Assembly: GCF_030013205.1 (NCBI RefSeq)
Contig: NZ_CP122648.1
Source of the DNA: Escherichia coli
GTDB lineage: Bacteria; Pseudomonadota; Gammaproteobacteria; Enterobacterales; Enterobacteriaceae
DNA: 64,000 nucleotides
Reading direction: 5' to 3' (one strand)
The position numbers and the translations under genes are program-made. The stretch's first letter is position 1, and each line of letters opens with the position of its first letter. This document shows, piece after piece, positions 56,783-59,914 of this stretch. The notes under the pieces are model-generated. The model saw only the letters and a program-made list of their open reading frames with translations. It ran no database searches and was not told the origin of the DNA.

Positions 56783-57708
56783 GTATTCGCATAATCCCGC
56801 AAGATGAGCTGGGTTCGAGCGAGAAACGTACGGCGGATATGATTCCGCCGTTATTGTTCCCTCGGCTCAAGAATTTATACAACCGCCGCGCCGAGCGTCT
56901 GCGCGAGCTGGCAGAAAATAATCCGCTGGGTGATTACCTGCGCTTTGCTGCGCTTATCGCCCACGCCCAGGAAGTGGTGCTGTACGACCATCCGCTGGAG
57001 ATGGATCTGACTGCACGCATTAAAGAAGCCAGCGCACAGGGCAAGCCCCCGCTGGATATTCACGTTCTGCCGCGTGATAAGCACTGGCAAAAGCTGCTGA
57101 TGGCGCTAATTGCTGAGCTGAAACCTGAAATGAGCGGCCCGGCGCTGGCAGTGATTGAGAATCTGGAGAAGGCATCGACTCAGGAGCTGGAAGATATGGC
57201 CAGCGCACTGTTTGCCTCTGATTTCTCATCCGTCAGTAGCGATAAAGCGCCGTTTATCTGGGCTGCACTGTCGCTCTACTGGGCGCAGATGGCCAATCTG
57301 ATCCCCGGCAAAGCCCGCGCTGAATACGGCGAACAACGTCAATATTGCCCGGTATGTGGCTCTATGCCTGTTTCCAGCATGGTGCAAATTGGCACCACTC
57401 AGGGTCTGCGTTACCTGCACTGCAACCTGTGTGAAACCGAATGGCACGTAGTGCGCGTAAAATGCAGCAACTGCGAGCAGAGCGGCAAACTGCATTACTG
57501 GTCGCTGGATGACGAACAGGCCGCGATTAAAGCCGAAAGCTGCGATGACTGCGGCACTTACCTGAAGATTCTTTATCAGGAAAAAGAACCGAAAGTTGAA
57601 GCCGTGGCAGATGACCTCGCCTCTCTGGTACTGGACGCGCGAATGGAGCAAGAAGGCTATGCTCGTAGTTCCATCAACCCGTTCCTGTTTCCGGGTGAAG
57701 GGGAGTAA
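56779..57708 (+). CDS. fdhE: formate dehydrogenase accessory protein FdhE
   Basis: 309-aa translation with CxxC pairs ([28 protein letters not shown]). Confidence 0.92.
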
Positions 57709-57889
57709 TCTCTGACGTTTTCCGGGTGGCGCAGGTCGCCCGGATTACAGTTCATAGGGTGTGACGACACCATCTCTCTTATTCCGCGTTACCACCTCAA
57801 GCTATGCTGCCAGTGCCTGTTTTGCCTCAATTTTCACACTGAACAAATCGATAACAATATCGATATCAAATAGCCAAATCTTTTTGCCA

Positions 57890-58108
57890 TTACCATTCCT
57901 CGCGCAGCTTACGCTGGTATTCGACACCATCTTCCTCACTCCCTTGCCAGATGCCAAAAGCACTGGCTCTTGCTGTTTGCGATTGATTTACCAGGTATTG
58001 ATCTACCGCTTCCCGTAATAGCTCCGCACGAGGAAGATTATGCTGCACCTCGAGATCATCAAGTTGCTTAAACAACTCATTCGATAAATTGAGTAAAATT
58101 CTGCCCAT
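57890..58108 (-). CDS. yiiF: ribbon-helix-helix (CopG-like) DNA-binding protein
   Basis: Translation from [39 protein letters not shown]; symbol assigned by adjacency to fdhE. Confidence 0.65.
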
Positions 58109-58225
58109 ATCTATACCTGCCAGAGAGTTCATAAATATCTCGCCCATATCATTTTTGAATCTATGGAGAGAAGAGTACCCTTGTCGAATCTTTAAAGAAA
58201 GCGTATTTACGCATCACTTTTTATT

Positions 58226-58269
58226 TTTGCGAGGCGTTTTCCAGATATGATGTAACAGTTGCAGTTATT
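58226..58269. promoter_or_regulatory. conserved upstream module A (tttgcgaggcgttttccagat ... atgtaacagttgcagttatt, with CAGTT-g-CAGTT direct repeat), putative promoter/operator
   Basis: Recurs at 58666-58709; its first 21 bp recur at 60348-60368. Confidence 0.45.
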
Positions 58270-58350
58270 ATAAGTTCAAGTAAAACAGCCTTGTATTAAT
58301 ACCAGAATAAGGGCATCTGTTTTTTTATATTCAAGAATGAAAAATTTTTG

Positions 58351-58569
58351 TCATTCCTTATGCTCCTTACACTGATCATCAACACCAACTACCTCCCCCT
58401 TTTGCCTGCCTCCCTTTGCTTTACGCACCGGGAATTGCTGACGTTCCAGATATTGCTCTACCGCTTCGCGTAAAATTGCAGATCGTGAAACCTTACGCCA
58501 GCCCCTAAGCTTGTTCAGCCGTTTAATTGCCTCTTCTGATAAATGAAGAAAAACCGTATTCATCGCCAT
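58351..58569 (-). CDS. yiiE: ribbon-helix-helix (CopG-like) DNA-binding protein, paralog of the preceding gene
   Basis: Translation from MAMNTVFLHLSEEAIKRLNKLRGWRKVSRSAILREAVEQYL. Confidence 0.65.
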   Translation of the reverse strand: MAMNTVFLHLSEEAIKRLNKLRGWRKVSRSAILREAVEQYLERQQFPVRKAKGGRQKGEVVGVDDQCKEHKE

Positions 58570-58665
58570 TACCACCACCTTACATATATTACTCATTAAT
58601 GTATGTGCGAAAATTACGCCGAAAAATCATTTAAAAAAAGCGGATTTTTGCATGTCGTTTTGTTT

Positions 58666-58709
58666 TTGCGAGACGGCATCCAAAGATAATGTAACAGTTG
58701 CAGTTATTT
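58666..58709. promoter_or_regulatory. conserved upstream module B (copy of module A)
   Basis: Ungapped alignment with 58226-58269; the 3' 20-mer is identical. Confidence 0.45.
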
Positions 58710-58987
58710 CAATTGTTACTCAAAAATGGTTTAGTAATAACCCAGGATGGTTTATTACTTTTAATTAAGCGGGGACACATCTACAGAAAAGAAACAACAA
58801 ATAATAAGGATGAATTATGGGTGCTATAAATATTTTATATTCAAGAATATTTTTTTGATTGGGTGTTCATTTGCTTCATCAGGATGGTGTACCCGAAAAA
58901 GTCAGCAGCTTTACCGCACCAGGGTTTAAGGTGAAATCTACCATTCATAACTGACCGGTCAGTGCCGCACCAACCGGTCTTTAATTG

Positions 58988-59266
58988 TTAGTAGTAGTAA
59001 ATTTGTGGATAACAGTCCGGGAACCAGACGATTCCTTCTGGATCATCCCCCTGCATTACCCGATGACATTGGCGTCGATCATCTGCGCGACGGCGAAGCG
59101 TAGTATAGAGCCGCTTCCATTCATGATCGCCCGGTGTACTGTAGTTTACCCAACAATCCATTGAAGGGTGACGCCATTTACCTGTAAGTGTTGGGATCCC
59201 TGAATGATTATGTGGCTTCGCTTTACCATTACGATCCCTATCTTTACGCGTATTAAGCGTGGACAT
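58988..59266 (-). CDS. hypothetical 92-aa basic, Cys/His-containing protein
   Basis: Intact ORF; no family recognised. Confidence 0.35.
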   Translation of the reverse strand: MSTLNTRKDRDRNGKAKPHNHSGIPTLTGKWRHPSMDCWVNYSTPGDHEWKRLYTTLRRRADDRRQCHRVMQGDDPEGIVWFPDCYPQIYYY

Positions 59267-59317
59267 TTTTAGTCTCCTGTTAAGAGTTCTAAAAATGTGC
59301 TTCCTTAAAATAGTTCA

Positions 59318-59539
59318 TCATTTTCCCTTAATTCGCATAGCGTGCTTTTGCACGAATTTCCGATACGCGGGGACCATTATGATAGCGTCGATGCCCACAC
59401 ATCCAACAAGAACAAATACAGGGAGTACGAAAGCAAATACCTGATGCTTTTTTGCTTCCATCGCCTGCAGTGCGATAACGGCAGCGGATTTTTTTAATCG
59501 CGCCATATGATGGCGACGTTCAGCACGATTACGGGTCAT
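59318..59539 (-). CDS. hypothetical 73-aa protein, basic N-terminus plus one predicted TM helix
   Basis: Hydrophobic segment FAFVLPVFVLVGCVGIDAIIMV; ATG immediately downstream of the 59545-59585 hairpin. Confidence 0.35.
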   Translation of the reverse strand: MTRNRAERRHHMARLKKSAAVIALQAMEAKKHQVFAFVLPVFVLVGCVGIDAIIMVPAYRKFVQKHAMRIKGK

Positions 59540-59544
59540 AGTAA

Positions 59545-59650
59545 AACTCCTGAGCAGGCGGCACTATGCCGCTTTCATAGGAGTTCTGAATGCTGGTGCT
59601 TTCTGTATGGCATAACCATGCCTCTAACGGTTAAGTGCCTGCAGCACATG
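59545..59650. repeat. ~100-bp repeat, copy 1 (imperfect hairpin plus conserved tail); overlaps the 3' end of the antitoxin gene
   Basis: About 85% identical to 61362-61464. Confidence 0.55.
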
Positions 59651-59914
59651 TTGCGGATCATTGGCAATCGCTCGCAGCAAAGCCTTTGCAGGCCCAGTCG
59701 GTGAACGTCGCCCCTGCTCCCAGTTACGCAACGTGTCTACGCTTACGGAAATAAGTTCGGCAAATTTAGATTGTGACAACCCTGAAGCGCGGCGTATTTC
59801 TTTGATTTTCATAGCATCAACTTCAAAAGTCCGTGAAGGGTGTCGCGTTCCTTCAATAATTTCATTCATCTGGGCCATGCTGTGAGTCAACCGCTCAAAA
59901 AGTGCCTTATCCAT
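59624..59914 (-). CDS. HigA-like HTH (XRE-family) antitoxin
   Basis: 96-aa translation with HTH (SQSKFAELISVSVDTLRNWEQGRRSP); directly follows the toxin gene. Confidence 0.75.
   Translation of the reverse strand: MDKALFERLTHSMAQMNEIIEGTRHPSRTFEVDAMKIKEIRRASGLSQSKFAELISVSVDTLRNWEQGRRSPTGPAKALLRAIANDPQHVLQALNR

Follow-up and report, generated by a model that had tools for sequence, protein, structure and literature searches.

A duplicated upstream module at the decayed VapBC locus yiiF-yiiE of Escherichia coli, and a putative repressor site within it

Introduction

Two small genes of Escherichia coli, yiiF and yiiE, lie in tandem on the minus strand, and both carry the same 20 nucleotides (the 20-mer) upstream of their start codons. 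The locus thus raises the question of where this identity comes from and what, if anything, it is for. According to the original prediction, the two genes are ribbon-helix-helix (RHH) paralogs, and a CAGTT-g-CAGTT repeat in a module upstream of each is plausibly one operator bound by both products, which would make the regulation mutual. RHH operators are read by the N-terminal ribbon of two or more cooperating dimers, and it is the ribbon that decides DNA specificity, since ribbon swaps transfer it (PMC3413123). Here we trace the two genes and their upstream regions in a 64-kb stretch of E. coli DNA (the window), in 5426 complete E. coli genomes, and in orthologous loci of other enterobacteria. 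Both genes were K-12 'y-genes' of unknown function; they can now be placed as an orphaned antitoxin and its genus-specific duplicate.

Results

An orphaned VapB-type antitoxin and its Escherichia-only duplicate

As annotated by RefSeq in a genome of 100% identity, yiiF (57890..58132, minus strand) encodes an RHH protein of 80 amino acids and yiiE (58351..58569, minus strand) a 72-amino-acid paralog, with starts 437 nt apart. yiiF has a conserved internal Met at 58108, and its longest open reading frame starts at 58147. YiiE matches Pfam RHH_1 (PF01402) above the cut-off (E = 1.1e-11). The YiiF allele of the window falls below the Pfam cut-off (RHH_3, 18.7 vs 21.6 bits); a close allele, that of E. 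coli with an intact vapBC, matches solved structures, namely 2K5J (YiiF, E = 1.6e-39) and 7BY2 chain A (Klebsiella pneumoniae VapB, labelled 'CopG family transcriptional regulator', E = 1.1e-36). The assignment of both proteins to the RHH family therefore stands, by domain model for YiiE and by solved RHH protein for YiiF, and the two are 38% identical.

Directly downstream of yiiF lies the remnant of a PIN toxin gene, vapC (57745..57890, minus strand). Aligned with the intact 375-nt vapC of strain CUVET16-465, it is reduced to 146 nt; its ATG overlaps the yiiF stop codon (TAATG), it contains an early stop and has lost a large internal part, and the downstream open reading frame has only 18 codons. 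The PIN gene is intact after yiiF in CUVET16-465 (PIN E = 4.4e-19) and at two further loci (L080, L077), and other E. coli strains, as well as no fewer than 30 enterobacterial species, have an intact vapC. A PIN toxin follows the yiiF/vapB orthologs in nearly all of the approximately 37 enterobacterial loci examined (L007-L043), and the intact E. coli VapC matches 7BY2 chain B (E = 9e-63). The window thus holds no working VapBC pair, as vapC is truncated; the module has decayed, and yiiF is the antitoxin of a pair whose toxin was lost in this strain. An origin of the locus on a plasmid was considered and rejected: the tblastn matches labelled 'plasmid' are records of 0.4-5.4 Mb, four of them above 4.7 Mb, and are apparently chromosomes.

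yiiE is a duplicate with a different DNA-reading ribbon. The ribbons read NTVFLHLS in YiiE and GRILLNLS in YiiF, an alternating pattern that, judged from sequence, fits the RHH N-terminal beta-strand. All three outward-facing positions differ (R/L/N in YiiF, T/F/H in YiiE). The toxin-binding tail GIWQG(C/S)... is kept across genera in YiiF and is degenerate in YiiE. Among 1.84 billion representatives YiiE has only 21 matches, essentially all from Escherichia, and an exhaustive search with HMMER detected no ribbon of the YiiE type in any other genus.

A module copied together with the gene

yiiF and yiiE are the two units of an approximately 438-bp tandem duplication of promoter and gene on the minus strand. 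Aligned over about 450 nt, the units agree at 58.5% of coding positions and at about 50% of those in the flanking non-coding part; identity rises to 81% in a 79-nt island and to 100% in the 20-mer. The 20-mer, ATGTAACAGTTGCAGTTATT, has exactly two copies in the window, both on the minus strand: copy A at 58250..58269, upstream of yiiF (AATAACTGCAACTGTTACAT on the coding strand), and copy B at 58689..58708, upstream of yiiE in the allele that we call E1. The identity of the two is as originally predicted, the second copy lying one base from the predicted 58690-58709. Chance accounts poorly for the pair (0.01 matches expected; 0/100 shuffles with two), and no third copy exists in the window at up to 3 mismatches. 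Copy A is identical in K-12, CUVET16-465 and other strains.

The 20-mer forms the perfect end of the 79-nt repeat, whose copies (module A, 58191..58269; module B, 58630..58708; both minus strand) are spaced 439 nt apart and consist of the 20-mer, an element that we call block 2 and an A/T-rich tail. A module does precede each gene as predicted, and 37 of the 44 positions first described as its extent are identical, although the repeat is longer than that. Both 20-mers contain AACTG-C-AACTG on the coding strand, that is, CAGTT-g-CAGTT on the other, and a pseudo-symmetry, GCAAC-T-GTTAC, is visible directly. They lie 118-137 nt upstream of the annotated ATG of yiiF and 120-139 nt upstream of that of yiiE; counted from the longest-ORF starts, the distance is about 95-120 nt. 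How exceptional a perfect run of 20 is depends on the frame of reference: permutation gave p = 0.003 against the whole aligned non-coding part of both units (62% identity), and p = 0.12, which is not exceptional, within the 79-nt island.

A second shared motif, also noted originally, is real as a 16-mer, TTTTATATTCAAGAAT, at 58323..58338 (ATTCTTGAATATAAAA on the coding strand, including a -35-like TTGAAT) and at 58833..58848 (both minus strand), one base off from the first description. Its copies are spaced 510 nt apart, as against 439 for the module, and it is not conserved in K-12 yiiE or at L077. We also found five near-matches to TAACTGNAACTGTT in the window besides the two copies, with 1-2 mismatches, where about one match in all is expected. 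These were taken as chance: three were checked and proved to be within long open reading frames or at their edges, and two further ones lie inside the neighbouring 92-aa and HigB-like genes.

Unit A also contains a decayed LexA-type box, CTGGTATTAATACAAG (58290..58305, minus strand), which aligns with CTGTATGGATATACAG of other genera; the duplicated unit thus took in the ancestral intergenic region. Together these data show that the shared module was copied with the gene when a vapB-type antitoxin cassette duplicated in the Escherichia lineage. Neither the decayed VapBC locus nor tandem duplication as the source of the similarity was part of the original prediction.

The tandem copies have continued to recombine. 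Exact hybrids of YiiE (N-terminal part) and YiiF (C-terminal part) occur, with the crossover within 11 nt of identity, and a natural hybrid carrying the YiiE ribbon lies upstream of an intact vapC, behind a module that bears the 20-mer. No complete genome among the 5426 has the junction of the hybrid at L083. Compared with the yiiF copy, alleles E1 and E2 are mosaics, and block 2 is a breakpoint of several rearrangements.

Distribution of the 20-mer among strains and species

The copy upstream of yiiE is variable. The second AACTG is missing from the yiiE copy in 61% or more of complete E. coli genomes, among them K-12, where the copy reads AACAACTGCAACACTCTTAT. Of the 5426 genomes, 855 have allele E1 and a further 412 a variant with spacer A, and about 23% of E. 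coli genomes have two copies of the 20-mer. Since the second repeat has been lost in most strains, the 20-mer site is dispensable for yiiE. Wherever YiiE is present the motif occurs somewhere in the locus, and upstream of yiiE itself it is found in approximately 23% of E. coli genomes. It is absent upstream of yiiE in E. whittamii.

In divergent Escherichia lineages both gene types are preceded by the 20-mer with no more than two changes (for example L077/L081/L082, AATAACTGTAACTGTTGCAT; L080; E. fergusonii, L078/L082), and the spacer base between the two AACTG may be C, A or T. At L077, 2/20 positions of the 20-mer differ from the window, compared by eye with about 9/30 in the immediate flanks, so that its conservation does not clearly exceed that of its surroundings. 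Conservation across enterobacteria, a point raised with the original prediction, does not extend beyond Escherichia: the 20-mer is absent from the orthologous loci of Citrobacter, Salmonella, Klebsiella, Enterobacter, Kluyvera and other non-Escherichia genera, although the VapB/YiiF ribbon is invariant there (>30 other species). The site is therefore not conserved wherever a protein with the same ribbon occurs, either for YiiF/VapB or for YiiE. These natural strain differences, with the site intact or destroyed at yiiE and vapC intact or lost, are ready-made genetic controls.

Predicted promoters and other signals

Promoters were scanned as consensus predictions, and the four sites found compare with 3.6 expected in shuffled sequence. 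The predicted distal sigma-70 promoter of yiiE (58683..58712, minus strand; -35 TTGAAA at 58712-58707, -10 TATCTT at 58688-58683) has the top weight-matrix score (10.5) in the 260-nt upstream region, its position is kept in the divergent L077, and its 18-nt spacer is the core of the 20-mer. Upstream of yiiF a predicted TATAAT consensus hexamer (58267..58272, minus strand), with a weak -35 by weight matrix, abuts and overlaps the 5' end of copy A. Such positions, over the best predicted promoter at yiiE and against the hexamer at yiiF, are those at which an operator would be expected.

Proximal promoters are predicted as well. That of the solo yiiF allele (58158..58187, minus strand) reads TCGACA, 18 nt, TAGATT, and in all genera a promoter of the form TGnTATACT occupies the same position, 84-85 nt downstream of block 2. 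Candidate sites for VapBC autorepression include the 20-mer, block 2 and a proximal palindrome, ATATAC-N5-GTATAT.

Searches of the literature and of supplementary data turned up neither binding data nor a mapped transcription start for yiiE or yiiF. An RpoS SELEX peak designated 'yiiD>yiiE' (PMC5493296) was considered as a site in the module and rejected; by coordinate conversion its distance from the yiiE start is approximately 745 nt, on the upstream side. When 57600-60600 was scanned against Rfam for known RNA families, nothing came near the gathering score, and an RNA element was rejected, as the putative leaders fold no better than shuffled sequences (z = -0.9 and +1.7).

Block 2, a non-coding element conserved across genera

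The best-conserved non-coding element across genera is block 2. Copies A (58226..58243, TGGAAAACGCCTCGCAAA) and B (58665..58682, TGGATGCCGTCTCGCAAA) belong to the two modules, and a third, copy C (60348..60365, TGGAAAGCGCCTCGCAAA), lies in the ancestral intergenic region by a divergent hydrolase gene, without a 20-mer; all are on the minus strand. The kind of sequence seen in copy A is conserved upstream of vapB across Enterobacteriaceae, with the alignment consensus T.TGGAAA.C..CTCGCAAAA. In the orthologous vapBC loci of other genera, which lack the 20-mer, the adjacent box TGGAAAgcgGCTCGCAAAA is kept. A small leader ORF across block 2 was rejected, since the genera have neither a reading frame nor a start in common there.

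By inspection, CTGGAAAgcggCTCGCA agrees with the sigma-54 -24/-12 consensus at 10 of 13 specified positions, with the required GG/GC spacing. That block 2 rather than the 20-mer is the functional core of the module, as a sigma-54 promoter (TGG-N9-TCGCA), is nevertheless barely credible: the GG-N10-GC spacing, the cross-genus conservation, the fixed distance from the proximal promoter and the copy retained beside the hydrolase gene would suit it, but the -24 element (TGGAAA) is weak, and neither sigma-54 ChIP-seq nor RpoN genomic SELEX in K-12, which has two copies, reported a site at yiiE or yiiF (PMC4591121, PMC8743547). Block 2 is a less understood element than the 20-mer.

Discussion

The origin of the repeated module is thus accounted for by duplication, and the question that is left concerns the 20-mer within it. 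Its position on predicted promoters makes a putative repressor-binding site its most likely function. When the vapB-type cassette duplicated, the 79-nt upstream module was copied along, with the 20-mer as its best-kept part. In each unit the 20-mer sits on a predicted distal sigma-70 promoter, filling the spacer at yiiE and beginning at the 3' end of the TATAAT at yiiF, and a repressor bound there could block RNA polymerase. Because the ribbons differ and YiiF orthologs with an unchanged ribbon lack the motif, the binder is more likely one protein than both, and YiiE is the better candidate, as it has the same taxonomic range as the motif, both being restricted to Escherichia. We put forward this reading, a duplication-derived module whose 20-mer is a repressor site read by one protein, as a tentative one. 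Several observations count against a repressor: the promoter scan gave no excess of sites over shuffled sequence, toxin-antitoxin operators more usually lie on a proximal promoter such as the one found in all genera, the yiiE copy is degenerate in most E. coli and missing in E. whittamii, the 20-mer does not clearly surpass its flanks in conservation, and its 6-bp repeat period is short for RHH sub-sites.

A somewhat less probable alternative is that the 20-mer itself does nothing and is a relic of descent, kept by chance, by hitch-hiking beside block 2 or by short conversion or recombination events between the tandem copies. A perfect run of this length is unexceptional inside the 79-nt island, the tandem copies do recombine, as the hybrids, the mosaic alleles E1 and E2 and the breakpoints in block 2 attest, and the motif is not conserved outside Escherichia; its frequent loss upstream of yiiE is evidently tolerated. 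On the other hand, 20/20 identity followed by 75% over the next 59 nt demands an explanation where the coding part has reached 58% and the flanks about 50%, and the 20 nt are kept with the same sharp boundaries in divergent species and in front of both gene types. The abrupt end of identity on both sides argues against a recent long conversion tract, and a tract of 20 bp would be unusually short.

A third reading takes the 20-mer as a promoter element, or as a site for a host factor such as a nucleoid-associated or global regulator, instead of a site for the RHH proteins encoded beside it. Promoter-like hexamers do coincide with it, and the locus is AT-rich, with a GC content of 35-42% over 57.8-59.0 kb versus about 54% in the fdo genes; in addition, yiiE is reported to be H-NS-associated and 2.5-fold up on SlyA over-expression (PMC5797941). 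However, near-perfect copies occupy at most two places per genome in the 5426 E. coli genomes, which argues against the site of a global regulator, and by eye no match was seen to the consensus of LexA, CRP, FNR, ArcA, IHF or NarL. We consider this reading unlikely.

The least probable account of the 20-mer itself is the model of the original prediction, in which YiiE and YiiF share one operator and regulate each other. The 20-mers are identical in the window strain, both proteins are RHH proteins, and the hybrid with the YiiE ribbon does sit behind a 20-mer module and before an intact vapC. Against this, the ribbon sets specificity, and none of its three outward positions is shared by the two proteins, so that a shared operator, and hence cross-regulation, is improbable; moreover, orthologs with the invariant YiiF ribbon do without the motif in >30 other species, and K-12-type strains have no intact site at yiiE. 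We regard the model as very doubtful.

Under the one-protein reading, a more specific and speculative scenario, to which we give little credence, is that, once vapB had duplicated in the ancestor of Escherichia, YiiE gained its T-F-H ribbon (in place of R-L-D) together with a new AACTG-repeat operator on both cassettes, and represses yiiF-vapC as well as itself. YiiE would then be an antitoxin-derived supervisor in a two-tier toxin-antitoxin circuit that persisted after the toxin was lost, and reshuffling of its parts would be continuing, as illustrated by the YiiE-N/YiiF-C hybrids with intact VapC. More generally, if the 20-mer is an operator, it would be the first regulatory target for YiiE/YiiF and a natural case of ribbon-operator co-evolution after duplication of an antitoxin. 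The feature itself is modest: small, strain-dependent, and of a well-known kind.

Comparison with known systems

The operators of RHH proteins such as CopG, ParG, omega, MetJ, Arc and FitA consist of short repeated sub-sites over or abutting the core promoter (PMC3413123). The 20-mer resembles them in its two AACTG and its AAC-T-GTT pseudo-palindrome over a predicted promoter. It differs in its distance from the start codon, approximately 120-140 nt, toxin-antitoxin operators being usually located on the proximal promoter. RHH sub-sites are spaced 7-11 bp apart; the repeat period of the 20-mer, 6 bp, is shorter. The RHH domain of PutA reportedly binds GTTGCA sites in the put control region (attributed to Zhou et al., J Mol Biol 2008). 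On the plus strand GTTGCA is also found at the centre of the 20-mer, and PutA is likewise an E. coli RHH protein with a ribbon Thr; the ribbons are otherwise unlike, and the similarity is no more than a resemblance.

The VapBC module to which YiiF belongs is syntenic across Enterobacteriaceae and has been characterised in K. pneumoniae (7BY2/7BY3; Kang et al., J Med Chem 2020, as referenced in PMC11117207). The layout is shared, with an RHH antitoxin gene overlapping a PIN toxin gene, and at a K. pneumoniae locus (L030) that encodes a VapB with the same sequence as the 7BY2 chain, vapB-vapC is preceded by the conserved enterobacterial upstream blocks. The window differs from it in three respects: the toxin gene is a 146-nt remnant, there is an additional, Escherichia-specific 20-mer, and the cassette was duplicated to give yiiE. 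Loss of the toxin with retention of the antitoxin is likewise known from orphan or solitary antitoxins and from the 'mix and match' evolution of type II antitoxins. The latter also yields natural hybrids, which here join the DNA-binding half of YiiE to the toxin-binding half of YiiF. What distinguishes yiiF-yiiE from such cases is that parents and recombinants are found at one chromosomal locus in one genus, and that the hybrids are rare.

Organization of the duplicated locus

The window is from E. coli; positions 57700-59300 are 100% identical to the O139:H1 strain W13-16, and gene coordinates are those of its RefSeq annotation. fdhE (+) ends at 57708 and is followed on the minus strand by yiiF (57890..58132), yiiE (58351..58569), two hypothetical ORFs of 92 and 73 aa (58988..59266 and 59318..59539), and a NadS-type HTH gene with its 103-aa partner (59624..59914 and 59915..60226). 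A divergent alpha/beta hydrolase gene (Abhydrolase_3; ORF 60455..61363, +) completes the region. The 92-aa ORF had no match in Pfam or NCBIfam, and in several Escherichia lineages both hypothetical ORFs accompany the HigB-like/NadS pair. A perfect 17-bp palindrome, GTACGTCATTGACGTAC (60264-60280), 38 nt upstream of the 103-aa/NadS-HTH pair, looks like a candidate operator of this second toxin-antitoxin-like pair.

The yiiE/yiiF region is AT-rich (35-42% GC). The 20-mer ATGTAACAGTTGCAGTTATT occurs as an exact match at two places, 58250-58269 and 58689-58708, located 118-139 nt upstream of the annotated yiiF and yiiE start codons. The original prediction had identified this pair correctly, with the second coordinate one base too high. 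No third match was found in the 64-kb window with up to three mismatches allowed (0.01 expected by chance). The surrounding shared module is also present and is larger than first described, spanning 79 nt at 81% identity (58191-58269 and 58630-58708, spacing 439), and the second shared motif is a perfect 16-mer repeat, TTTTATATTCAAGAAT (58323-58338 and 58833-58848, spacing 510). A perfect 20-nt run is unusual against the whole non-coding alignment of the two units (permutation p = 0.003) but not within the 79-nt island (p = 0.12); the island is therefore the feature needing explanation, and the 20-mer is its best-kept end. The pattern TAACTGNAACTGTT has five more window matches with 1-2 mismatches (20156, 27879, 47566, 59179 and 60098), all in or at the edge of ORFs; about one match is expected in all, and the five are probably due to chance.

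The yiiF and yiiE units align end to end, with identities of 49% in the non-coding sequence upstream of the 20-mer, 100% in the 20-mer, 75% in the remainder of the module, 52% from the module to the ATG, and 58.5% in the coding region (38% at the protein level). Tandem duplication of promoter plus gene is firmly supported.

Origin of yiiF and yiiE

It is likewise firmly supported that yiiF is an orphaned VapB antitoxin of VapBC origin. In CUVET16-465, the gene occupying the place of yiiF overlaps one for a 124-aa PIN-domain protein (PF01850, E = 4e-19), which is annotated as the toxin VapC. A cross-species scan using one genome per species returned 72 loci, and a YiiF ortholog was found directly 5' of a ∼126-aa VapC in Citrobacter, Salmonella diarizonae, Klebsiella, Enterobacter, Kluyvera, Trabulsiella, Buttiauxella, Franconibacter, and others; the upstream neighbour in those genera is a divergent gene with a start resembling that of the window's hydrolase. 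The window retains 146 nt of vapC (57745-57890, minus strand), the ATG of which overlaps the yiiF stop codon (TAATG). This remnant has an early stop after an 18-codon ORF, and then a large internal deletion joined to the last ∼60 nt of vapC. K-12 has a different sequence at this position, and in the B2 strain 83972 and in E. whittamii yiiF and most of vapC are deleted. The deletion endpoints are block 2 (CTCGC; the box adjoining the 20-mer) and the vapC 3' end (CGCGAAATACGAG), leaving a 20-mer-bearing module that no gene follows. In E. whittamii, yiiE is fused straight to the ancestral hydrolase intergenic region, without the 20-mer. YiiF has been entered among AraC-family transcription factors (Table 1 of PMC4797297), which conflicts with its solved ribbon-helix-helix (RHH) structure (PDB 2K5J).

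yiiE is an Escherichia-only duplicate. Word-seeded and exhaustive HMMER searches, the latter of 1.84 billion representatives with 21 matches, recovered YiiE-type proteins essentially only from E. coli, Shigella, E. fergusonii, E. albertii, and E. whittamii. The ribbon, the N-terminal DNA-reading strand, is N-T-V-F-L-H-L-S in YiiE versus G-R-I-L-L-(D/N)-L-S in YiiF and all YiiF orthologs, and none of its three alternate residues, which presumably face outward, is shared (T/F/H versus R/L/D). DNA specificity in the RHH fold is set principally by the ribbon, and swapped ribbons carry specificity over (PMC3413123). The C-terminal tail of YiiE bears only a faint likeness to the conserved toxin-binding tail of VapB.

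Recombination between the yiiE and yiiF copies is real, as hybrid proteins were found with the N-terminal half of YiiE and the C-terminal half of YiiF. The loci L083 and L084 (1501-1725) recombine the window's two alleles exactly, crossing over within the shared 11-nt GAAGCGGTAGA, and in locus L077 (2501-3093) such a hybrid is followed by an intact VapC. These hybrids are rare, and the L083-type junction was found in none of 5426 complete E. coli genomes. Protein P0202, encoded on a 521-nt contig, may represent the reciprocal YiiF(N)-YiiE(C) recombinant, though a chimeric assembly could also account for it. Several rearrangements also have block 2 as their breakpoint, namely the HigB-like/NadS insertion, a fusion in E. 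whittamii, and the deletions of yiiF-vapC.

Conservation of the upstream elements

The 260 nt preceding vapB, yiiF, or yiiE were aligned for 27 species and the E. coli alleles. The hydrolase gene start is followed by a LexA-type box (CTGTATGGATATACAG, with TATAAA directly beside it on the hydrolase strand), block 2 (aTTCTGGAAAgcgGCTCGCAAAAg), and a proximal element of extended -10 type, TGnTATACT, within the palindrome ATATAC-TGGAG-GTATAT just before the annotated start. Block 2 is the best-conserved non-coding element of this alignment, and its distance to the proximal -10 is constant at 84-85 nt in every genus. The E. coli 20-mer directly adjoins block 2 on its 5' side, where the sequence of other genera is not conserved. 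Conservation across enterobacteria, a check proposed for the 20-mer in the original prediction, proved negative, with TAACTGNAACTGTT in 0/65 non-Escherichia loci, whereas the neighbouring block 2 was positive. Copies of block 2 (TGGAAAnCnnCTCGCAAA, minus strand) are found at 58226-58243, 58665-58682, and 60348-60365, the third being in the ancestral intergenic region beside the hydrolase gene, without the 20-mer. Block 2 resembles a sigma-54 -24/-12 promoter; K-12 sigma-54 maps report no site at the yiiE/yiiF locus (PMC4591121, PMC8743547).

In the window, a LexA-type SOS box, CTGTACATTCATACAG (60416-60438, +), comes right after TATAAA and 17 nt before the hydrolase ATG, and the box is kept in Citrobacter, Salmonella diarizonae, Klebsiella, Enterobacter, and others. 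The hydrolase gene, which diverges from vapBC, is a candidate for SOS regulation and may encode an esterase. The proximal element TGATATACTGGAGGTATAT (extended -10, palindrome, and GGAGG) is intact wherever vapC is intact (e.g. loci L003, 3160-3180, and L080), and has decayed to TGATATGGGCGAGATATTT in all solo yiiF alleles (window 58133-58155, K-12, E. fergusonii), which have a new promoter-like site, TCGACA-18-TAGATT, instead.

Within Escherichia, the yiiF-type upstream sequence is AATAACTGCAACTGTTACAT in all E. coli examined, AATAATTGCAACT(G/A)TTACAT in E. fergusonii, and AATAACCGCAACTGTTACAT in E. whittamii, where the gene is deleted. The yiiE-type sequence is the same as the yiiF copy in allele E1 (window, L079, L083), has spacer base A in E1' (strain 83972, Nissle 1917), ...TTGCAT in L080, and spacer base T plus ...TTGCAT in L077, L081, and L082; it is AACAACTGCAACACTCTTAT in E2 (K-12) and AACAACTGCAACGTTCTTAT in E2' (CUVET16-465), and E. 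whittamii lacks the 20-mer there. A census of the 5426 complete genomes recovered the yiiF-copy 40-mer in 3862, E1 in 855, E1' in 412, E2 in 3058, and E2' in 260. The 20-mer region was matched at least once in 5396 and twice in 1272; the latter agrees with E1 + E1' (1267), and two intact copies are therefore present in ∼23% of genomes. The second AACTG has been lost from the yiiE copy in at least 61% of complete E. coli genomes, including K-12. Divergent lineages keep both AACTG units around a variable base (C, A, or T), and the identity ends sharply on both sides. This pattern points to an element of some age that has been retained more than to a long conversion tract of recent origin, albeit in a small sample whose flanks show no dramatic excess of divergence. 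The distribution of the motif over strains and genera is firmly supported.

Possible function of the 20-mer

The top-scoring predicted sigma-70-like promoter in the 260 nt upstream of the window's yiiE is TTGAAA-18 nt-TATCTT, the spacer of which is the core of the 20-mer, and the arrangement is kept in the divergent L077 (TTAAAA-18-TATTTT). Upstream of yiiF, the 5' end of the 20-mer falls within a consensus TATAAT, which is predicted to place the motif at about +1 to +14. The consensus promoter scan gave no more sites than shuffled sequence, and each of these predictions stands beside the conserved proximal promoter. A literature search for yiiE/yiiF found no transcription-start or binding results; SlyA over-expression raised yiiE 2.5-fold, and the gene is in H-NS-bound DNA (PMC5797941), and an RpoS SELEX peak is far upstream (PMC5493296).

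A protein bound to the 20-mer would block RNA polymerase at the predicted promoters, which fits the operator proposed in the original prediction. That the 20-mer is an operator is plausible, though we hold this reading tentatively. YiiE would then be a likelier binder than YiiF, because the YiiF ribbon is invariant in genera without the motif and because the range of the motif is that of YiiE. The main rival, which we consider possible but doubtful, is that of a 20-mer functionless in itself and carried along beside block 2. Mutual cross-regulation by both YiiE and YiiF, as first implied, is quite improbable given the differing ribbons.

The repeated 20-mer is undescribed in the literature found, but it would be of an ordinary type, as an operator or a promoter module serving an RHH antitoxin; the VapBC family, the RHH fold, and the two genes were already known. 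VapB and VapC from the intact E. coli locus match the antitoxin and the toxin, respectively, of the solved K. pneumoniae VapBC complex (7BY2/7BY3; E = 1e-36 and 9e-63), whereas the toxin gene of the window is a remnant.
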